From: Escherichia phage phiWec179
Length of the DNA: 64,000 nt
Sequence record: LC739533.1
Reading direction: 5' to 3' (one strand)
The position numbers were made by a program, and so were the translations under genes. The stretch's first letter is position 1. Each line of letters begins with the position of its first letter. Below the pieces are notes generated by a model. The model was not told the DNA's origin, did not search any database, and worked only from the letters and a program-made list of their open reading frames with translations. Shown piece by piece: positions 2,752 through 28,092 of this stretch.

Positions 2752-2932
2752 CACAAAACAGTACGGAGAAGGTGAGGTTTATAAAATTTATAACCGTAAA
2801 GGGGATAAGCTTTTAGTAACTATCACCATCCCAGAAAATATGTGCAAGGCAGGTTTGGATCGCCTGTTGTTCTTTAAACACAATATTCCACCTGGTGAAT
2901 ACACAATCAAGAAGGTGCCAATTGTCAAGTAA
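2741..2932 (+). CDS. hypothetical protein
   Basis: 63-aa ORF overlapping neighbours by a few nt. Confidence 0.45.
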   Translation: MANNTKQYGEGEVYKIYNRKGDKLLVTITIPENMCKAGLDRLLFFKHNIPPGEYTIKKVPIVK

Positions 2933-2945
2933 AGAACCAAAAATA

Positions 2946-3500
2946 ATGTGGGGCGAAGGAACGCCCTGGAAGTCACAAGCAGAGTTTTACACTTATCTTC
3001 GTGGCTGTCTTCGTCAGGCTTGGATGCGTCACCCTAACAAAATCAAACTCCTGAATGCAAAACGATACAAAGCGGATCGTCTTGACAAAGATGGTAAGGT
3101 GATGTTAGATAAGAAGACTGGCTTACCGAAACAGGTTTGGCATTGTTCTTGTGAAGTGTGCGGATACACTGGAGGTATGAAAGACTTCCAAGTGGATCAT
3201 ATCCATGCAGCAAAAAACTTGCAATGTTTTGATGACATTCCTATGTTCGTTCTACGTCTGATTTATGTCAATGTGGAAGACTTACGTATGGTTTGTAAAT
3301 CTTGTAACTCTATCTTAGCTTACGCTGACAAGCAGGGCATTTCTTTCGAACAAGCAAAAGTTGAGAAAGAAGCTATTGCGATCTGCAAAGATAAGCAAGA
3401 TAAGAAATGGTTAACGAAACGAGGTATCGAACCAGCAAGTACCGTAGCAAAACGAAGAGAACAAATAGTCAAAATCCTATTGCAGGAAATCGAAAGTTAG
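2946..3500 (+). CDS. HNH endonuclease-like protein
   Basis: CSCEVCG..VDHIHAAKN..CKSCN matches HNH CxxC/DH/N/CxxC arrangement; start taken at ATG 2946 rather than upstream GTG 2895. Confidence 0.6.
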   Translation: MWGEGTPWKSQAEFYTYLRGCLRQAWMRHPNKIKLLNAKRYKADRLDKDGKVMLDKKTGLPKQVWHCSCEVCGYTGGMKDFQVDHIHAAKNLQCFDDIPMFVLRLIYVNVEDLRMVCKSCNSILAYADKQGISFEQAKVEKEAIAICKDKQDKKWLTKRGIEPASTVAKRREQIVKILLQEIES

Positions 3501-3534: not shown

Positions 3535-4152
3535 ATGAAGATAGTTTGTGATTGGGATCTGGTGGTTGCTCCACTGGATGTTGCTTGGCTGGAATGGTTG
3601 GTTAAAGTTAGTGGAGATTGTGTAGGCTTCTCCGAAGCTGTCAAGAATGTTGACTACGATCTTACTAAATACTTCCCAGGTTTCCGTGAGAAGTTTAACA
3701 TCGATCCTTACGGCTTTCTGGATAATCCCCATCTCTATGACACGATGGGATGTATCAAACCTATGGCTGACTTCTTAGAAGGTATTGTGAAAGAGGGCGA
3801 TAATGCACTTATTGCAAGTGTGACTAAAGGTGGACACCTTAGCTCAAAACACAAACATGTTTTAAGAACTTTGCCAACCATTGATTTTGGTAAAGGTTCT
3901 GGTAACGGTTTCTTTGCCACAAAAGAAAAATACCTGTTGCCTTGTGATATTGCCATAGATGATAGGGCAGAAAACCTGTTGTATTTTCCAGATCATGTTG
4001 TTAAGATTTATTACAATACGATGTATAAAGATTTGTATTTGGAAGAATTAAAAAAGAAACCAAACGTAGTTGTCACGGGTTTGTACAATCAAGCAGAAAC
4101 CTGTTGGCAGGTTTATTCAATGTTAAAAGAACGAGGAGAAATTAATGTCTAA
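3535..4152 (+). CDS. HAD-superfamily 5'(3')-deoxyribonucleotidase-like protein
   Basis: N-terminal CDWDLVV (DxDxV HAD motif I); RBS agaggagg; sits in nucleotide-metabolism cluster. Confidence 0.5.
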   Translation: MKIVCDWDLVVAPLDVAWLEWLVKVSGDCVGFSEAVKNVDYDLTKYFPGFREKFNIDPYGFLDNPHLYDTMGCIKPMADFLEGIVKEGDNALIASVTKGGHLSSKHKHVLRTLPTIDFGKGSGNGFFATKEKYLLPCDIAIDDRAENLLYFPDHVVKIYYNTMYKDLYLEELKKKPNVVVTGLYNQAETCWQVYSMLKERGEINV

Positions 4153-5134
4153 TATCAGTGCACAAGTCATCGCCCAATCCATCAACGAAGAAGGACAGAT
4201 GATCACAACTTTCGAACTGGAATATCCACGCATCATCCATTCGGAACTGATGACACACCGCCTATTCTCCCGAAACGCTGCTTCAAGCCGCGCTATTCCC
4301 GTCAAGACTTTGATTGAGATGGTTCGCAACGAACCTGCGGCACCTGTTCGATTTGGTCAACACCAACCTGGGATGCAGGATCAAGGTGTAGAGTATGATG
4401 CTCTCATTGGGGTAGGTTATTCGAGTCGTGAGTGGTGGAATTTAGCTGCACTTAGTGCGGCAAACTTTGCAGAACAAATGGCGGAAGCTGGTTACGCGAA
4501 GCAGGTTTGTAATCGCCTTCTTGAACCATTCCAAAAAATGAAGACGGTTCTGACAGCAACCGAATATGAAAACTTCTGGTGGCTACGTGATGATGCTGAT
4601 GCTGATCCGACTATTGAAGCTTTAGCCAAAATTATGTTTGAAGCCTATGAAGCTTCTACTCCAGAACTACTGGCTCCAGGTCAATGGCATACGCCTTACG
4701 TAGATCATGTCTACGAGAACATTGGTTTGGAAGGTGATGATGTTTGGGTATTCAGTGGGTATAGCACTACAGATGAAAATGGCAATACTATCATGCTGTC
4801 GCTGGAAGAAGCACTTGCAATCTCTTCTTCTTGTTGCGCACAAGTGAGCTATCGTCGTCTGAATGCAACTAAAGATAAAGCTTTGGACATTTATGGACGT
4901 TTGCTTACCGGACGTAAAGTTCACGCTTCCCCTTTTGAACATCAGGCAACCCCAATGAAAAAAATGGATTTGTCAGGCTTAAAACGACAGGAGCATGGTG
5001 TTAATATTCCTCCGTTCCCGATTTCTTGGGAACCAGGCGTTACTCATGTAGATCGTAATGGTCAATTCTGGTCGGGGAATATGAAGGGTTGGGTACAACA
5101 TCGTCAACTTTTAGACAATCATACTAAATGGTGA
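4145..5134 (+). CDS. ThyX-like (flavin-dependent thymidylate synthase family) protein
   Basis: ELMTHRLFSRNAASSRAIP resembles ThyX RHR-x7-S-x-R motif but with T in place of first R; 329 aa. Confidence 0.6.
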   Translation: MSNISAQVIAQSINEEGQMITTFELEYPRIIHSELMTHRLFSRNAASSRAIPVKTLIEMVRNEPAAPVRFGQHQPGMQDQGVEYDALIGVGYSSREWWNLAALSAANFAEQMAEAGYAKQVCNRLLEPFQKMKTVLTATEYENFWWLRDDADADPTIEALAKIMFEAYEASTPELLAPGQWHTPYVDHVYENIGLEGDDVWVFSGYSTTDENGNTIMLSLEEALAISSSCCAQVSYRRLNATKDKALDIYGRLLTGRKVHASPFEHQATPMKKMDLSGLKRQEHGVNIPPFPISWEPGVTHVDRNGQFWSGNMKGWVQHRQLLDNHTKW

Positions 5135-5230
5135 TTCGAGTAAATTCTTATTGACTTTAGTGTTAGATTTAGTGTAGTATAGCAAAACGTTGGGGGAGGT
5201 GAGATTCCCCCTTTATAAAAGGAGAAAATT

Positions 5231-5641
5231 ATGTCATTAGTAAACACTACCACTTGGGCTACCGTGAGCATGTCTACCGTTAAGTCTACCCCGATCTGGA
5301 AGCAAGAGTCAGAAAAATACCGTGGTCATATTCCTCACGATCGTCACGCAGATGTACTTCGTGCCGCTCTGGTGTTCCTTGGTATGAACGAAGATGGCAA
5401 CTTCTCTGTTGAACGTAATGTTAACATTCGTAGTAACAACGACAACAGTTTGGTTTATATCAACACAACTCTTTATACTTTTGCTGTTAAAGAAAGCTGT
5501 CCTTTCAAACATATCTACCAAAAGAATGATATTTTTCATTACGGAGATGAAGAGTTTGGCGGTTGGGGTGTGACCCACACAAAAATGGATGATTTCGGTA
5601 ATTCCTATGATCCTGCGAGAGCAGAAGATAATTCACTTTAA
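5231..5641 (+). CDS. hypothetical protein
   Basis: 136-aa ORF, RBS aaggag. Confidence 0.55.
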   Translation: MSLVNTTTWATVSMSTVKSTPIWKQESEKYRGHIPHDRHADVLRAALVFLGMNEDGNFSVERNVNIRSNNDNSLVYINTTLYTFAVKESCPFKHIYQKNDIFHYGDEEFGGWGVTHTKMDDFGNSYDPARAEDNSL

Positions 5642-5911: not shown

Positions 5912-8152
5912 GTGATTCGATACGTTACTAAATCAAATGGTAAGACAGAAGAGTTCAATCCTGAAAAACTGCGTAAATGGTCTGAATTTGCAGCAGGGAA
6001 ACTGAACTGGTCGGAAATTGAATTAGAAGCTGTGAAACGTTGTTACGATGGTGTGTCTACTCGTGATTTACATAAAGCTATGATCGCTGCGTGTATTGAT
6101 AAGAAGACTCAAGCGTACAGTGATATGGCAGGTCGATTGCTTCTCGGTATGATTTACAAACAGGCTCACGGGGGATACCACAGTATCCCTTCCCTGTACA
6201 CTTTCTACCAAGATATGGTGAAGCGTGGACATTGGGCCAAGATGGACTATACCGAAGAAGAAATCAAAGAGATTGGTAAGATTGTCAAACATAACAAGAA
6301 TCTAACCTACGGTTATTCTGTTCTTCGTCAGATGGCGGATAAATACTTGGTTCGTGATGCTGTGAATGATGTTGTTCACGAGTCACCGCAATTCCTGTTT
6401 ATTGGTGTGGCAATGCGTGTTATGGAGATCCAGCCTAAAGATCGTCGTATCAACGATATCAAAAAGCTGTACACATACGTAAGTGATCTTCAGATTAACT
6501 TACCATCTCCTTATCTGACAACGTTACGTACTCCGATCAAAGGTAGCGCGTCTTGTTGTTTATTCCGTGCAGACGATACAGCAGAGTCTTTGGCTATTGC
6601 AAACTATCTGGCACACGAATATACGTTGAATAATGCAGGGATTGGTGTTAACCTCCAAACTCGTGCAACTGGACAGGGTGTTAAGAACAACCGTATCGTT
6701 CATGGTGGTCTTCTCCCTTACCTCAAGTGGATGGAAGATAGCGTAGGAGCTTCTAAACAAGCGAGTCGTGGAGGTAGTGCAACGGTTACGTTCACAATCT
6801 TGGAGCCAGATTTTGAAGATCTGATTCGACTGAAGAACCCAACCACTCCGATCGATAAGCGTGTTGATAAGCTGGATTACTCTGTTGTTGTAAACCGCTC
6901 CTTCCTTCGCCGTGCGGCTAAAGGTGAAGAGTGGATGCTTGTGAGCTGTGACGAAGCACCGGAACTTTACGAAGCATTGTACAAAAGTGAAGAAGAGTTC
7001 GATGCGGTCTACGATAAAGTTAGTCGCCGTCGCATCAAAAAGAAAATTGTTAAGGCTCGTGACCTGTTGACTGAAATCATTGTTCAACGTGCAGAAACTG
7101 GACGTATTTATATGTTCTTCGCTGACAACGTAAACAATCACAGTCCTTTCCTGGATACTGTGTATCAGTCAAACTTATGTCAGGAGATCTTTTTACCTAC
7201 TAAAGCGTTCCATAAAATGACGGATCTCTTTACTGGTGAAAACACAGAAGATCAAGAATTGGCTTTATGCTTCTTGTCCTCTATTGTTGCTGGGCGCGTT
7301 ACGCCGGAGCAATATGAAGATGTTGCGTATTATACTGTATTGACGATTGATAACGTTATTGAGACGATGGAATATCCGTTCAAACATAACGAGATCACAG
7401 CTAAGGCTCGCCGCTCTATCGGCGTAGGTATTACAAACCTTGCACATTACTTGGCAAGCAACTTTGTAACCTATTCTGATCCTTATGCGAAGAAGCTGAT
7501 GCATGAATTAGCAGAACGTCATTACTTCTGGTTGGCACAAGCCTCTCTGCGCTTGGCGAAAGAGAAAGGTAATGCCGAGTGGATGGATAAAACTAAGTGG
7601 CCTCAAGGTTGGCTCCCTATTGACACCTACGCTAAAGCAGTAGATACTATTGGGGACTTTGAACTGAAGCTGGATTGGGAAGGCTTACGTGCTGGTATCA
7701 TTGAACAAGGTGGTATCCGTAACAGTGTGCTTGCAGCAGTGGCCCCGAACGAATCAAGTAGCTTGGTGAGTAATACGACCAACTCACTCTACCCTGTACG
7801 TGACACGATCATGTACAAACAGAGTCAGAAAGGTAACGTACTGTTTATCGTACCAGATTACGAAAAACTGAAAATGTTCTATCAGTCGGCGTGGGATACC
7901 CCGTCTAAAGATATTGCCGAGATGTATGGACTCTTCACTAAGTTTACGGATCAGGGTATCTCCTGTGATGCTTGGTTAGATTATTCCAAAATGGAAGGTG
8001 GACGTTTATCAGTGAAAGCCGAGATGCAATTTATCTTAACATTTGCAAAGCTTGGTGGTAAATCTCTTTACTACCTGAACAGCCGAACCAAATCAGCGGA
8101 ATCTATGGCCCAAGAAGATTCTGATGGTGGTTGTGAAGCTTGTAAAATGTAG
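5912..8152 (+). CDS. nrdA: ribonucleoside-diphosphate reductase large subunit (class Ia)
   Basis: 746 aa; N-terminal ATP-cone-like VTKSNGKTEEFNPEKL; length and conserved blocks typical of NrdA; GTG start with RBS agggaggag. Confidence 0.9.
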   Translation: MIRYVTKSNGKTEEFNPEKLRKWSEFAAGKLNWSEIELEAVKRCYDGVSTRDLHKAMIAACIDKKTQAYSDMAGRLLLGMIYKQAHGGYHSIPSLYTFYQDMVKRGHWAKMDYTEEEIKEIGKIVKHNKNLTYGYSVLRQMADKYLVRDAVNDVVHESPQFLFIGVAMRVMEIQPKDRRINDIKKLYTYVSDLQINLPSPYLTTLRTPIKGSASCCLFRADDTAESLAIANYLAHEYTLNNAGIGVNLQTRATGQGVKNNRIVHGGLLPYLKWMEDSVGASKQASRGGSATVTFTILEPDFEDLIRLKNPTTPIDKRVDKLDYSVVVNRSFLRRAAKGEEWMLVSCDEAPELYEALYKSEEEFDAVYDKVSRRRIKKKIVKARDLLTEIIVQRAETGRIYMFFADNVNNHSPFLDTVYQSNLCQEIFLPTKAFHKMTDLFTGENTEDQELALCFLSSIVAGRVTPEQYEDVAYYTVLTIDNVIETMEYPFKHNEITAKARRSIGVGITNLAHYLASNFVTYSDPYAKKLMHELAERHYFWLAQASLRLAKEKGNAEWMDKTKWPQGWLPIDTYAKAVDTIGDFELKLDWEGLRAGIIEQGGIRNSVLAAVAPNESSSLVSNTTNSLYPVRDTIMYKQSQKGNVLFIVPDYEKLKMFYQSAWDTPSKDIAEMYGLFTKFTDQGISCDAWLDYSKMEGGRLSVKAEMQFILTFAKLGGKSLYYLNSRTKSAESMAQEDSDGGCEACKM

Positions 8153-8158
8153 CAATAC

Positions 8159-8180
8159 AGGGGCTTCGGCCCCTTTTTTA
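8159..8180 (+). terminator. rho-independent terminator (GGGGC-TTCG-GCCCC + T6)
   Basis: Same hairpin as at 1563, immediately after nrdA stop. Confidence 0.55.
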
Positions 8181-8193
8181 TTGAGGAGCGATT

Positions 8194-8532
8194 ATGAGCA
8201 CACTTATAGTTTTACCTGGAGTAACCCCAATCTACCGACCTGGGTTTAAGCCTCTGTTGCTTTGCCCTGAAGATTTCACCCCTACTTGGTGTCACCATTA
8301 TCTTGGTGGACGTGAAATAGCTAACATGCAGATTTGGGAATCTTTTTATCCAGAAGCCACGGCTTACGCAATAACAAGAGCAAGAAGTGAAGAAACAGTG
8401 ACTGTTATACTTGGTAGAAGCGTATGGGAAGCATTAGAAGGTTTCTACCGGAGTAATGGTTTTGAGGAACAAGATATTTTAAACTTAAAAGGTTTTTGTG
8501 AAATAGTGGAGGATTTAAATGGCAGCAATTAA
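8194..8532 (+). CDS. hypothetical protein
   Basis: 112-aa ORF between nrdA and nrdB. Confidence 0.5.
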   Translation: MSTLIVLPGVTPIYRPGFKPLLLCPEDFTPTWCHHYLGGREIANMQIWESFYPEATAYAITRARSEETVTVILGRSVWEALEGFYRSNGFEEQDILNLKGFCEIVEDLNGSN

Positions 8533-9604
8533 TTTACATAATGAGACTTACAAAACAGGTAAATATCCGGTATTCATGGGTGAGCAATTGGGGATCTTTG
8601 ACTCAATTAATGTGACGTATCCTGAAATGCACCGTCTGTATAAACTTCAGAAAGCCCAAGATTGGGATGAGAATGAAGTGGATCTTAGTCAGACCCGTAA
8701 AGACTTTGTAGCGTGTTCAAAAAACAACTACGATGTTATGATCAAGAACTTGTCGTTCCAGTGGGAGAATGATTCTCTGGCAAAATCCATCATCACTTTG
8801 TTCTCTCCGTTTTTGAGCAACAATGAAGCATGTGCTATGATGATGAAGCAGAGTGAGATGGAAGTGCTTCACGCTCTAACTTACTCGGAGATTGTTCGCC
8901 AGTGTACTCCAAACCCTGTAGAAGTTATTGATCAGATTATGGAGAACGACAAGATCTTCAACCGTATGGGTATCATTGCAGAGATCATGGGAGAGTTGGA
9001 AGAAGCAGGTCACAAATATGCACTTGGTCTGATTGAAGCTGATGATAAACTACGTTTGCTGGTCATGAAAGGTCTGGTAGCCCTGATTGGTCTGGAAGGT
9101 ATCCAGTTTATCTCTTCTTTCTCGGCAACGTTCGCCTTGGCAGAACAGCAACTGTTTGTAGGTGCTTGTAAGCTGATTCAGAAAATCATGTTGGATGAAA
9201 TCCTGCATGTTAAAATGGACTATGCTGTCATTGATGCTCTGATGCAAGATCCTGTGTGGAAGAAGATCTACGAAGATAACATCGAAGAACTTACAACTAT
9301 TCTGGATACAGTTATCGCTCAAGAAGAGCAGTGGTGTGATTATCTGTTTAGCGAAGGACGTTTTATCGTTGGGCTGAATGCTGAACTGTCCCGTCAATGG
9401 GTGTACTTCAATGCGGCTCCAATTTATCGTCGTTTGAAGATGAAGCACAGCTTTAAATCTCCTAAACAGAACCCACTACCTTGGATGGACATTTGGTTAA
9501 ACCCAGATCAGATTCAAGCAGCGGCGCAAGAGATCCAAGTTACAGCTTACAAACTGAACTCGGCTAACAAAGATGTTTCTGATGATATGGAGTTTGACTT
9601 CTAA
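8519..9604 (+). CDS. nrdB: ribonucleoside-diphosphate reductase small subunit
   Basis: 361 aa with diiron-carboxylate NrdB-like blocks (EVLHALTYSEIVRQ), C-terminal acidic tail; RBS gtggagga. Confidence 0.9.
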   Translation: MAAINLHNETYKTGKYPVFMGEQLGIFDSINVTYPEMHRLYKLQKAQDWDENEVDLSQTRKDFVACSKNNYDVMIKNLSFQWENDSLAKSIITLFSPFLSNNEACAMMMKQSEMEVLHALTYSEIVRQCTPNPVEVIDQIMENDKIFNRMGIIAEIMGELEEAGHKYALGLIEADDKLRLLVMKGLVALIGLEGIQFISSFSATFALAEQQLFVGACKLIQKIMLDEILHVKMDYAVIDALMQDPVWKKIYEDNIEELTTILDTVIAQEEQWCDYLFSEGRFIVGLNAELSRQWVYFNAAPIYRRLKMKHSFKSPKQNPLPWMDIWLNPDQIQAAAQEIQVTAYKLNSANKDVSDDMEFDF

Positions 9605-10283: not shown

Positions 10284-11276
10284 ATGCGCTATCTGGTAAC
10301 AGGTGGTCTTGGTTTTATTGGGAGCGCCGTTGTGCGCTCTCTTTGTCAAGATCCTAATAACGAAGTTTTTGTCATTGATAAAATGGGCTACGCAGCCGAT
10401 ATTGAAAATGTAGGGGATATCACTCACGCCAAACTAAGCATGACGGATTTGGCAAACGAAGCACAGGTCAAAAGTTTGGTGGTAGAATGCAACCCTGATT
10501 TCATTATTCACTTAGCGGCAGAGAGTCATGTGGACAACTCTATCAAAAATCCACGAGCTTTCATCGACTCCAATATCATCGGTACATATAATTTACTGGA
10601 AGCTGCGAGACTACTCCCAAGGAATAAGCTGAAGATGTTTGTACACGTCTCCACAGACGAAGTGTACGGCGATATGGCAGACTCTGGCGCTCCCTTTACC
10701 GAAGAGACAGCATATACTCCTTCAAGCCCGTACAGCGCGTCCAAGGCGGCTTCTGATCATCTTGTGAAAGCTTGGCACCGTACTTATGACTTGCCTGTAG
10801 TGATAACTAATTGCTCCAATAATTTTGGACCTTACCAATACCCTGAAAAATTGATTCCAAAAGTAATCACAAGCATCTTGACGAACAAAGAAATCCCAGT
10901 GTATGGTAAAGGTGATCAGGTACGAGACTGGCTTTTTGTTGAGGACCATGCACGAGCTATTCTTCAGGTAGCTTCTGGCGGCGAACCTGGACAAACTTAC
11001 AACGTAGGTACACGTAATCCTAAAACCAATATGGAGATCATCTATATGATTTGTGATTACATGGATGCCGTACACCCGCAAAGTGGAACCTACCCCTCTT
11101 CAAGTTTAATAACTTTTGTTGAAGATCGTAAAGGACATGACTTGCATTATGAAATCAACCCTGCTAAGATTGAATCTGAACTGGGTTGGAGTGCAAACTC
11201 CACATTTGAACAAGACCTTTACTCTACGATAGAGTGGTATTTAAACAACCCTCAATGGTGGAGAGAAAAGATTTAA
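10284..11276 (+). CDS. rfbB: dTDP-glucose 4,6-dehydratase
   Basis: TGGLGFIGS Rossmann motif, YSASK catalytic YxxxK, about 330 aa SDR-extended. Confidence 0.9.
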
Positions 11277-11284
11277 GGAGGGTT

Positions 11285-12163
11285 ATGAAAGGTATTATTT
11301 TGGCTGGAGGAAGTGGAACCCGCCTACATCCAGTAACACGCAGTGTGAGCAAGCAATTGCTCCCTGTGTATGACAAACCTATGATTTATTATCCTTTATC
11401 AGTCTTGATGTTGGCAGATATTAAGGATATCTTAATCATCACAACCCCAGGCGATCAGGAAGATTTTGAGTATCTTCTTGGAGATGGATCTATGTTTGGG
11501 ATAAAGATCACTTACGCAATGCAGTCTGAACCACGAGGTCTTGCAGATGCTTTCATCATTGGTAAAGATTTCATTGGGGAAGATTCTGTTGCCCTTATTT
11601 TAGGGGATAACTTGTTCTTCGGACAAAGTTTCGGAAAACTTCTTATCCAAGCCAGCGAAATGGTGGATGTTTGGGGTGGAGCTTGTATCTTCGGGTATCT
11701 GGTGAAAGATCCTGAACGATTCGGTGTTGTTGAGTTTGGAAGTAATCGCCAAGCTATCTCTATTGAAGAGAAACCGGAACATCCTAAATCAGACTATGCT
11801 GTCACGGGTTTGTATTTCTATGACAACTCTGTTGTTCAACGTGCATTGGAAGTAACCCCTTCCGAGCGTGGAGAACTGGAGATCACAGATATCAATCGCA
11901 GCTACCTCGAAGACAGGAAGTTACAAGTTGAAGTTCTTGGAAGAGGATTCACTTGGTTGGATACAGGGACACACGCCAGTCTAATGGAAGCAGGTCAATT
12001 CGTGCAGACTATTGAGAACTGCCAAGGATTGAAGATTGCGTGCCTGGAAGAGATCGCTTTCAAAAAAGGGTGGATTTCTTTAGAGACTTTGGTGTATCAT
12101 GGCAACTCATTGAAGAAAACAGAGTACGGGCAATATTTGTTAAAATTAGCGGAGGGTAAATGA
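11285..12163 (+). CDS. rfbA: glucose-1-phosphate thymidylyltransferase
   Basis: [37 protein letters not shown]-terminus typical of RmlA; start at ATG 11285. Confidence 0.9.
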
Positions 12164-12720
12164 AAATAAAAGAATTAAGTATTCCTGGTCTGGTTGTCTT
12201 TAAACCTCAAGTTTACAAAGATGATCGTGGTTACTTCACGGAGACGTTTAACGAGAAGATTTACGAAGAGGTTATTGGCAAACAAACGTTTGTTCAGGAT
12301 AACCATTCATTCTCTACTTTAGGTGTTCTTCGCGGAATGCACTTTCAAGTAAACAATCCGCAAGGTAAGCTTGTACGTTGCACACGAGGTGAAGTTTTTG
12401 ACGTGGCTGTAGATCTTCGTGAAGGTAGTCCAACCTTCGGACAATGGGAAGGTGTGATTCTTAGTGGGCGTAACAATAAACAGTTTTGGATTCCACCTGG
12501 CTTTGCACATGGTTTTGTTGTAACCTCTTATGAAGCCAACTTTGAATACAAGTGCACCAACTACTACGATCCGGCATCTGAACGTAGTTTGTTGTGGAAC
12601 GATCCTACTGTGAATATTGATTGGGGTTTTGATATGATTTTCAATGATGAGAATTTTGTACCTATCATTTCGGAAAAGGATGCACAAGCTAAAACACTGA
12701 AGGAGCTTATGGAATCATGA
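12160..12720 (+). CDS. rfbC: dTDP-4-dehydrorhamnose 3,5-epimerase
   Basis: 186 aa; [18 protein letters not shown] cupin block typical of RmlC. Confidence 0.85.
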
Positions 12721-13559
12721 AAACATATTTAGTATTGGGTGGTAATGGTCAATTAGGTCAGGCACTGCGTAAAGTGGTGCCGGAGAATGTGACTTTGGTG
12801 TATCCAGAAAAGCGTGTAGATATCACCAGTTTCGAAGCTGTAAGAAAAGCGATCATGGACACCCCAAATATTAACGGTGTTATCAACTGTGCGGCATACA
12901 CTGCGGTGGACAAAGCAGAGACAGATGTTGATGCAGCTATGGCTGTAAATTTACACGGGGCAGCTAATATTGCTGCCTTCTGTAAGGCTTGGGATATTGA
13001 CATGGTGCATATTTCTACTGACTATGTGTTCAACAGCGATAAACCGTTGTTCCATCAGGATGAACCCAACCCTATCAATGTTTACGGGTTATCTAAAAGT
13101 TTGGGTGAAGCTGCTGTTCGTGGTATCTACCATAAAGCTTTTATTATCCGCACGGCTTCTGTGTATAGCGAGTTTGGTAACAACTTCCTGAAGACTATGG
13201 TGTCTCGTTACAACGATGGTCAAAGAGACTTCTCGGTAGTTGCAGATCAAACATCTCGACCAACTTATGCCCCAGATTTGGCTAAGATGATTTTCCAAGT
13301 GTTGGAAACAGGATATAACACCCGTACTTTGCATTACGCTGGGAACATCACTGTTTCGTGGCACCAGTTCGCAAAAATGATATTGACACGTATGCCTGAA
13401 TCTGTTATTATACACCCGACCTCTGCTGCAACCTATAATTCGGCAGCGATGCGACCAGCAAAGTCTATACTAATTACGTCTGGTTGGAACGAACCTTCAA
13501 GCGTCGGACAAGGTATTGAAGAATCTTTAGCAGTATTACTTAATAAGGAGAGAGCATGA
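12717..13559 (+). CDS. rfbD: dTDP-4-dehydrorhamnose reductase
   Basis: LVLGGNGQLGQAL Rossmann motif, about 280 aa, directly after rfbC. Confidence 0.85.
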   Translation: MKTYLVLGGNGQLGQALRKVVPENVTLVYPEKRVDITSFEAVRKAIMDTPNINGVINCAAYTAVDKAETDVDAAMAVNLHGAANIAAFCKAWDIDMVHISTDYVFNSDKPLFHQDEPNPINVYGLSKSLGEAAVRGIYHKAFIIRTASVYSEFGNNFLKTMVSRYNDGQRDFSVVADQTSRPTYAPDLAKMIFQVLETGYNTRTLHYAGNITVSWHQFAKMILTRMPESVIIHPTSAATYNSAAMRPAKSILITSGWNEPSSVGQGIEESLAVLLNKERA

Positions 13560-13816
13560 ATTTTGTAATTTACGGCAAACCAAATTGCCAGTTCTGTGAA
13601 ATGTCCAAACAACTCTTAACTATGCGTGAAAAAGAGTTTGAATATCTGACATTAGATCAGGACTATGATTTTGAAGTGATGACTCAAGCAGTGATCGCAG
13701 CAACAGGAATTGCACCTCGCACCTTCCCGCAGATTTTTGTGGAAGAGCTTGGAGCAGTAACCCACGTAGGCGGTTTTACCGAACTGCGTGATTTCATGGC
13801 TCAAATTGCGGAGTAA
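13556..13816 (+). CDS. glutaredoxin/NrdH-like redoxin
   Basis: 86 aa, N-terminal CQFC redox motif in thioredoxin-fold context. Confidence 0.65.
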   Translation: MNFVIYGKPNCQFCEMSKQLLTMREKEFEYLTLDQDYDFEVMTQAVIAATGIAPRTFPQIFVEELGAVTHVGGFTELRDFMAQIAE

Positions 13817-27918: not shown

Positions 27919-28092
27919 TTAAAGTACGATTTTTTCTTCGTCTGGTTTGTCATAATTTGGAGAGTAGACATGTGAAGGGTTGAAACCCTTGAAGCTACCA
28001 CGTCCTTTACGAGGACAGTTGAAAGTACGAGCCTGATGATCACCGAAAGACTTACCACAATGCACACATTTGAAGTTGGTAACTTTATTCAT
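27919..28092 (-). CDS. small zinc-ribbon protein
   Basis: CVHCGK..CPRKG; start at ATG 28092 with RBS aaaggag. Confidence 0.5.
   Translation of the reverse strand: MNKVTNFKCVHCGKSFGDHQARTFNCPRKGRGSFKGFNPSHVYSPNYDKPDEEKIVL

Follow-up and report, generated by a model that had tools for sequence, protein, structure and literature searches.

The window examined here comprises 64,000 nucleotides of Escherichia phage phiWec179 (LC739533.1), and at positions 4145..5134 on its + strand lies the gene considered in this report, which encodes a permuted, ThyX-type protein assigned to the flavin-dependent thymidylate synthases. Its translation is a complete open reading frame (ORF) of 329 residues plus stop, with no internal stops. 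The Pfam model Thy1 (PF02511) matches the product at 35.8 bits against a gathering threshold of 24.8, residues 21-173 covering profile positions 59-190 only, and PHROG_85, annotated as thymidylate synthase, gives a strong match of 354 bits. The AlphaFold2 (AF2) monomer model, with a predicted local distance difference test score (pLDDT) of 95.6 and a predicted template modelling score (pTM) of 0.92, has the three-dimensional fold of ThyX. No match to a ThyA-family profile was found in the Pfam, NCBIfam or PDB searches. A single-sequence query of the PDB returned no chain at E up to 10, and the ThyX chains were reached only with a family profile; neither type of search found a solved structure of any member of the family to which the phage protein belongs.

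The phage polypeptide is circularly permuted relative to every characterised ThyX. Alignment with hhalign equates residues 19-174 with residues 60-200 of Thermotoga maritima ThyX (TM numbering, used below for all canonical residues) at a probability of 89% and E 2.3e-6, and residues 226-269 with TM 21-62 at a probability of 88-96% and E 1e-8 to 3e-6, the values varying with the sub-alignment used. In the phage protein, TM 21-62 therefore follows TM 60-200, unlike the arrangement in canonical ThyX (T. maritima TM0449, PDB 1O26/1KQ4; Mycobacterium tuberculosis; Helicobacter pylori; PBCV-1 A674R). Residues 179-222 and 271-329 gave no hhalign match to the canonical ThyX profile. A HMMER search of the PDB with the family profile likewise recovered T. 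maritima ThyX, whose sequence was checked against entry 1KQ4, in three pieces of scrambled order: profile positions 221-264 align with chain positions 32-73 (TM 20-61), positions 27-56 with TM 61-90, and positions 139-178 with TM 160-199. When residues 213-270 (or 179-270) were placed in silico before residues 19-178, the Thy1 score rose from 33.4 to 44 bits as a single continuous match over positions 16-190, and that of the NCBIfam thyX equivalog model TIGR02170 rose from 25.5 to 39.3 bits, also as a single continuous match (positions 21-207) and still below its cutoff of 87.9.

Secondary structure assigned with DSSP points to the same arrangement. The first part of the phage AF2 model runs e5-13, E19-28, H29-36 ... 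E131-138, H142-148, H155-170 (E or e, strand; H, helix), and the second part E187-192, E201-209, E215-218, H220-236, H243-254, H262-266, e268-270, followed by a tail. A canonical ThyX modelled likewise begins with E2-5, E9-17, H20-31, H38-50, H55-59 and continues with E61-69, H70-76 ... E154-163, H164-174, H181-197. As modelled, the phage elements thus appear in the order C-A-B rather than the canonical N-to-C order A-B-C, as in a circular permutation. Residues 226-269 were also considered as an internal repeat of the fold, a possibility rejected on two grounds: the competing alignment to TM 121-157 reaches a probability of less than 3%, and agreement with the H-x-S/T-P-F-E-H motif is nearly exact.

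The chain can accordingly be divided into five segments, all encoded on the + strand. An N-terminal beta-strand (E5-13) within residues 1-18 (4145..4198) is family-specific, and the profile alignments contain nothing that corresponds to it. The ThyX core, residues 19-178 (4199..4678), corresponds to TM 60-200, from beta3 through the long C-terminal helix, as judged from hhalign, Pfam and element order. Residues 179-225 (4679..4819) contain strands E187-192, E201-209 and E215-218 together with the start of helix H220-236, and hold an invariant W-H182-x-P184-Y motif; by their place in the modelled order, and with no significant sequence match, the strands at 187-218 may be the counterpart of canonical beta1-beta2. 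The relocated canonical N-terminal module, residues 226-269 (4820..4951; TM 21-62), consists of helix alpha1, helix alpha2 and the segment H260-A-S-P-F-E265-H266, covering canonical S30, H53, E58 and H59; it is identified by HMMER, hhalign, the re-ordering experiment and an intein site described below. The C-terminal tail of about 60 residues, 271-329 (4955..5131), is again family-specific, with no counterpart in canonical ThyX, and carries a conserved WSGN..GW.Q.RQ motif that includes N312, Q318 and the invariant R320. Its pLDDT of 87-98 suggests packing against the core. The phage protein lacks the canonical C-terminal helices (199-217) and has this tail and the N-terminal strand as new elements. 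The earlier note on this DNA had described a long C-terminal extension, which exists only with respect to the Thy1 match at residues 21-173; most of it is the relocated core module, and the remainder is the shorter tail.

The same note had called the length of the protein unusual, which holds against canonical ThyX (about 209-255 residues) and fails within its own family, whose full-length members mostly have about 290-350. Because the protein aligns with its relatives from end to end, a frameshift or gene fusion was rejected as the origin of the extra length. The family is large. A tblastn search matched 1034 phage records, 982 of them covering at least 80% of the query, among them phAPEC8-like, rV5-like, ICP1, JG004/PAK_P1-like, N4-like, phiCbK-like and Flavobacterium phages. 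An exhaustive HMMER search found 4985 clusters (50% identity) at E up to 1e-3 and 1629 at E up to 1e-30, most matches aligning over their full length, and a search of BFVD added only a few further family members along with canonical viral ThyX. Among 185,579 representative genomes, a low-sensitivity scan with the single peptide pattern SCCAQVSY, derived from a 19-sequence alignment, found 10 loci, all on contigs of metagenome-assembled genomes (MAGs). Of two such contigs examined, one (L010) carries a phage-type DNA polymerase and a primase/helicase and the other (L017) carries other phage-family genes. The permuted ThyX family appears to be phage-borne. In the searchable literature on these phages and on ThyX, no mention of the permuted topology or of the motif change described below was found, and the permuted phage ThyX is most likely a topological variant of a known enzyme, apparently undescribed there.

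Some relatives are longer still. Among the 150 best family representatives, 17 have 520-680 residues owing to inserts at conserved sites (P0124, P0142, P0146, P0164, P0165, P0183, P0187, P0193, P0206, P0210, P0219, P0223, P0228, P0232, P0234, P0244 and P0268). The inserts occupy five sites, after H32, R39/L40, S48, H150 and H260 in the numbering of the phiWec179 protein, and intein or homing-endonuclease domains (Intein_splicing with HNH; LAGLIDADG) were confirmed in both relatives scanned, P0124 and P0142. Insertion at conserved motifs is the usual pattern for inteins. All five sites lie at such motifs, and one of them, after H260, falls within the relocated module.

The signature segment of the family departs from that of ThyX at its first residue. 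The canonical signature is R-H-R-x7-S, or in extended form R-H-R-x7-S-x-R-Y, and the phage protein instead contains T37-H38-R39-LFSRNAA-S47-S48-R49-A50 (THRLFSRNAASSR; THRLFSRNAASSRA), the variant T37-H38-R39-x7-S47-S48-R49 being encoded at 4253..4291 on the + strand. Three independent profile alignments, made with HMMER against the PDB and with hhalign, agree in equating T37-H38-R39 with T. maritima R78-H79-R80 and S47-S48-R49-A50 with S88-G89-R90-Y91. The replacement of the first arginine by threonine, remarked on from the sequence in the earlier note, is borne out residue for residue, and the motif is not offset. Conservation was assessed in an alignment of 121 diverse family members that are 36-65% identical to the phiWec179 protein, in which T37 occurs in 95%, H38 in 99%, R39 in 80%, S47 in 99%, R49 in 99% and A50 in 99%. 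Judged from these sequences, threonine at the first motif position characterises the family as a whole. Rare permuted members, P0211, P0250 and P0197, have RHR or KHR at the threonine position and would be useful for ordering the motif change relative to the permutation.

Beyond the motif, much of the catalytic and cofactor machinery of ThyX is retained. In the relocated module, canonical S30 corresponds to S235 (100%), H53 to H260 (100%), T55 to S262 (98%), E58 to E265 (95%) and H59 to H266 (99%). In the core, H79 is retained as H38 (99%), R80 as R39 (80%), N85 as N44 (96%), S88 as S47 (99%), R90 as R49 (99%), N169 as N143 (99%) and L173 as L147 (99%). R147 corresponds to R124 (4514..4516, +; 99%), presumably a ligand of the nucleotide phosphate by its match to R166 of PolB, a ThyX-like C5-methylase of uridine monophosphate (UMP) and deoxyuridine monophosphate (dUMP) from polyoxin biosynthesis. 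R174 corresponds to R148 (4586..4588, +; 100%), with NFxxLR aligned to NFLNLR, and contacts uracil O2/O4. Residue roles follow two structural papers (PMC3498832, PMC5003785); PolB numbering is taken as T. maritima +8 through the motif region from the motif spacing, and the matches of PolB R166 to R147 and of R193 to R174 follow from their places in the fold. R78, R80, S88 and R90 of T. maritima ThyX are reported to form hydrogen bonds to dUMP (PMC3498832), and in PolB the uracil carbonyls are bound by R193 (R174) and R98 (R90) (PMC5003785).

Nine residues of canonical ThyX are replaced family-wide: R28 by Q233, R74 by A/S33, Q75 by E34, R78 by T37, E86 by A/S45, Y91 by A50, N163 by T137, R165 by T139 and H178 by D152. 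As read from the aligned residues, the predicted pocket keeps its uracil and flavin side and one phosphate ligand and has its sugar/phosphate side rewired; R28, N163, R165 and H178, on the side of flavin adenine dinucleotide (FAD), are also among the replaced positions. The family has conserved residues of its own at R29, R/K43, G76-M77, W98, H118-K119-Q120, H182-x-P184, R237, N312, Q318 and R320, which could offset the lost ligands.

The reading preferred here, at a probability of roughly three in four, is that the permuted protein would be a working flavin-dependent thymidylate synthase that makes thymidine monophosphate (dTMP) by ordinary ThyX chemistry; its catalytic activity, product, oligomeric state and compensating residues are what we infer, and its fold, homology, permuted segment order, conserved residues, selection and genomic context are what the analysis demonstrates. 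In its chain, the canonical N-terminal module, two helices with the H-x-S/T-P-F-E-H flavin/folate motif, is encoded after the catalytic core and not before it, with a short extra strand at the new N-terminus and the conserved 60-residue tail at the new C-terminus. By homology with canonical ThyX, flavin bound to the enzyme would be reduced by reduced nicotinamide adenine dinucleotide phosphate (NADPH) and would accept, on N5, the methylene of 5,10-methylene-tetrahydrofolate; this would then go to C5 of dUMP, the latter polarised by the conserved R49 and R148, and reduction of the exocyclic methylene would yield dTMP and tetrahydrofolate. Since tetrahydrofolate would be regenerated as a product, dihydrofolate reductase (DHFR) would not be needed. 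R29, R/K43, H118-K119-Q120, G76-M77, H182, R237 and R320 are candidates to compensate for the lost pocket residues. Within a putative operon for the supply of deoxynucleoside triphosphates (dNTPs), comprising a deoxyribonucleotidase, ThyX, NrdAB and glutaredoxin, the enzyme would raise the supply of thymidine triphosphate (dTTP) for an A+T-rich genome and, in this lineage, probably for dTDP-rhamnose (dTDP, thymidine diphosphate) as well. The role of the gene, dNTP supply, is ordinary and its architecture unusual.

Several points weigh against this functional assignment. TIGR02170 scores the unmodified protein at 28.7 bits, far from its cutoff of 87.9, and several residues invariant in canonical ThyX are replaced, including R78, R74, E86 and Y91. 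In PolB, the phosphate is held by R82 (R74), S96, A97, R98 and R166 (R147), and the ribose O3' by R86 (R78) and E94 (E86), so that the phage family has lost the equivalents of R82 and of both O3' ligands; the PolB variant Y99A, altered at the position of Y91, is nearly inactive (PMC5003785). Compensation by family-specific residues is conjectural, and full-text searches of the literature turned up no biochemical or genetic test of any member of the permuted family.

Selection and genomic context bear on the same question. The ratio of nonsynonymous to synonymous substitution rates (dN/dS) against the ortholog of phage vB_Ec-G1 (75% amino acid identity) is 0.11, with dS near saturation, and the gene is under purifying selection; a dN/dS of 0.18 has been reported for thyX of Rhodovirinae (PMC11934525). 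In the approximately 128 of 151 kb of vB_Ec-G1 that were covered, up to the last 23 kb, no second thymidylate synthase, DHFR, deoxycytidine monophosphate (dCMP) deaminase or hydroxymethylase is annotated. Elsewhere, ribonucleotide reductase genes lie within a few kb of the family gene in ICP1, JG004 and CcrPW, a deoxynucleoside monophosphate kinase gene lies near it in CcrPW, deoxycytidine triphosphate deaminase and MazG-type pyrophosphohydrolase genes in DFL12phi1, and a thymidylate kinase gene in a phage-like MAG contig. In the five lineages inspected, the family gene sits among dNTP-supply genes. No rhamnose genes are annotated within 4 kb of it in ICP1, JG004, DFL12phi1 or CcrPW. In N4-like roseophages, thyX co-occurs with dCMP deaminase (PMC11934525, PMC2784036). 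On contig L017 (CAKZJX010000007.1, 8152-11442), the family gene precedes a thymidylate kinase gene and two genes of the 7-deazaguanine pathway, which encode a QueE-like radical SAM enzyme and a GTP cyclohydrolase; guanine is probably modified in this phage, which has the same ThyX variant.

The alternative that survives best, although unlikely, is a neofunctionalised enzyme of ThyX fold that transfers one carbon to uracil C5 of another nucleotide (UMP, deoxyuridine di- or triphosphate, or one altered in its sugar) or that gives off another product, for example 5-hydroxymethyl-dUMP; in phapecoctaviruses the dTDP-rhamnose and glycosyltransferase genes could draw on such a product to decorate the DNA. 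The replaced residues R74, R78, E86 and Y91 are those that hold the sugar 3'-OH and phosphate or, in the case of the tyrosine, stack on uracil (PMC5003785, PMC3498832), and PolB shows that a ThyX paralog can have an altered substrate range (PMC5003785). The genes rmlBACD lie about 5 kb downstream of thyX, four glycosyltransferase genes adjoin replication genes in relatives, a published survey describes complete dTDP-rhamnose pathways for phapecoctaviruses and phi92-like phages, next to their DNA-metabolism genes, and glycosylation of hydroxymethylated nucleotides has been proposed for these phages (PMC7552041). Against this stand the ordinary dNTP-synthesis neighbours in the other lineages inspected and the co-occurrence with dCMP deaminase, a source of dUMP (PMC11934525). 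Vequintavirinae and phi92-like phages, the latter with dTDP-sugar genes, are moreover reported to be "exceptionally susceptible" to restriction-modification (RM) systems (PMC8594841), which argues against heavily modified thymidine. The protein family is also spread much more widely than the rhamnose genes, and the uracil-binding R49, R148 and S47 and the flavin/folate residues H260 and E265 are conserved. To our knowledge, all known phage dUMP hydroxymethylases are of ThyA type, as in thymidine hypermodification, which again speaks against a ThyX-fold enzyme in this role.

Much of this also bears on the suggestion in the earlier note that the neighbouring genes point to a modified pyrimidine nucleotide. 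The suggestion finds no support, the family being present in about 1000 phage genomes while the rhamnose genes are lineage-specific; the dNTP-gene neighbours elsewhere, the RM-sensitive relatives and the conserved uracil and flavin/folate residues tell against it too. We infer a simpler, metabolic link between thyX and the rml genes: dTTP is the precursor of dTDP-rhamnose, and a phage of 39-44% G+C that makes dTDP-sugars as well would require extra dTMP. A broader version, in which the whole phage clade would not be a plain dTMP synthase, is quite improbable. It would have the flavin relay act on another uracil nucleotide or yield a non-methyl C5 product (again, for example, 5-hydroxymethyl-dUMP), which in phapecoctaviruses and phi92-like phages would enter rhamnose decoration of DNA through rmlBACD and the glycosyltransferases. 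What suggests it is that the family as a whole has lost the canonical ligands for the phosphate and the sugar 3'-OH, along with the tyrosine that stacks on uracil.

Very unlikely is a uracil-C5 methyltransferase acting on a polynucleotide, whether phage or host RNA or DNA, in a pocket opened by the lost ligands. Several mononucleotide sugar and phosphate ligands are indeed gone, the conserved 60-residue tail has basic residues, and the flavin/folate uracil methylases TrmFO and RlmFO act on RNA (PMC5954106). Those enzymes, however, have a different fold, and the phage protein keeps S47/S48 and the phosphate ligand R124 (R147); the dNTP-synthesis context of the lineages inspected and the failure of the Pfam, PHROG and NCBIfam scans to detect any nucleic-acid-binding domain also count against it. 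A catalytically dead ThyX relic with a structural or regulatory role (binding of dUMP or folate, or scaffolding of a dNTP complex), which the loss of the hallmark R78 and Y91 and the failed equivalog model might suggest, is likewise very unlikely given the (near-)invariant remaining catalytic residues across the 121 sequences, the dN/dS value, the targeting of active-site motifs by inteins and the standing of the gene as the sole annotated thymidylate synthase in the covered part of vB_Ec-G1.

The dTMP synthase proposed here also differs from PolB and from ThyA-type enzymes. PolB (PDB 4P5A) has the canonical segment order and the phage protein the permuted one; PolB also keeps R86, E94 and Y99, with Loops 1 and 2 setting its specificity (PMC5003785), features of which the phage protein shares none. 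The equivalent of PolB Tyr99 is Ala50, and the equivalent of its substrate loop is replaced by another conserved segment with P67, G71 and G76-M77. ThyA-type synthases and hydroxymethylases are functional analogues in phage pyrimidine metabolism that are unrelated to phage ThyX in fold and mechanism; modified pyrimidines are documented to arise through them (PMC8989533), and ThyA, which yields dihydrofolate, usually occurs together with DHFR (PMC7824862). The thyX genes of ICP1, JG004, DFL12phi1, rV5-like and phAPEC8-like phages belong to the same family, with 34-75% identity over 97-100% of the query, and ORF29 of roseophage DSS3phi2 is a listed homolog of N4 gp30 (PMC2784036). Related phage genes are already routinely annotated as thymidylate synthase, on similarity alone.

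ThyX is a textbook case of convergent enzyme evolution and an antibacterial drug target. The R-H-R-x7-S motif, together with a few arginines and one tyrosine, underlies both the way the enzyme is defined and the model of its mechanism. Thousands of sequence clusters and about 1000 sequenced phages have a rearranged chain that dispenses with four of those residues, in a clade that includes the model phages ICP1, rV5-like, phAPEC8-like and PAK_P1/JG004-like and, according to the literature, N4. If the permuted enzyme is active, R78, R74, E86 and Y91 would be inessential to the chemistry, implying a second way of holding dUMP, and the family would offer a natural circular permutant for studying how three subunits of the FAD-bound ThyX homotetramer come together to form an active site. 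Surveys based on the motif or on equivalog models would then undercount viral ThyX; one published survey dropped sequences with more than two dissimilar residues off the motif (PMC2826268).

The window is 100% identical to Escherichia phages phiWec181 and phiWec186 (LC739534/LC739535), phAPEC8-like myoviruses; phiWec188/190 and PsgM04F share 94% identity with it, and phAPEC8-type phapecoctaviruses about 79%. In the phiWec181 record, thyX is labelled "hypothetical protein", an annotation that in phiWec181/186 should become ThyX-type thymidylate synthase.

The neighbours that the earlier note had named, a HAD nucleotidase, nrdAB and rhamnose genes, are all in place. Immediately upstream, at 3535..4152 (+), lies a gene for an NT5C-type 5'(3')-deoxyribonucleotidase of the HAD superfamily, which matches PF06941 at 28.1 bits against a cutoff of 24.8 and whose ortholog is annotated 5'-3' deoxyribonucleotidase. 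Its stop overlaps the thyX ATG at 4145 by 8 nt (4145-4152; ATGTCTAA), and a GAGGAG ribosome-binding site lies inside it, 7 nt upstream of that ATG; this overlap and the internal site suggest translational coupling of the two genes. Downstream on the + strand, the dNTP-supply module continues with the class Ia ribonucleotide reductase genes nrdA (5912-8152) and nrdB (8519-9604), between which the window has only a 112-residue ORF (8194-8532). In vB_Ec-G1, an HNH endonuclease gene stands between nrdA and nrdB (11165-11821 of its locus), which the window lacks at 8153-8518, and the window ORF at 2895-3500, just upstream of the NT5C gene, has an ortholog annotated as HNH endonuclease; the presence of homing endonucleases varies within the dNTP module.

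The complete dTDP-L-rhamnose pathway follows within the same DNA-metabolism region, as rmlB (10284-11276), rmlA (11234-12163), rmlC (12160-12720) and rmlD (12717-13559), with a glutaredoxin gene (13556-13816) directly after rmlD. The four glycosyltransferase genes of vB_Ec-G1 are consecutive (L003, PQ433349.1, 87984-91128) and adjoin genes for primase/helicase, DNA methyltransferase and DNA polymerase I, which together with rmlBACD suggests a phage-encoded pathway to a glycan or glycoconjugate. In the 96-nt gap 3' of the thyX stop, a promoter-like TTGACT-18-TAGTAT lies at 5151-5180, and at 5192-5211 a 6-bp G/C hairpin (GGGGGA-loop-TCCCCC) stands just before TTTATAAAA; the hairpin might act as a terminator or in regulation ahead of the small ORF at 5231. 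The G+C content of the window is 39-44%, and its GC skew lies at about +0.1 to +0.19 up to 28 kb and at about -0.14 to -0.2 beyond, a flip near 28000 that probably reflects a switch of coding strand between gene blocks.

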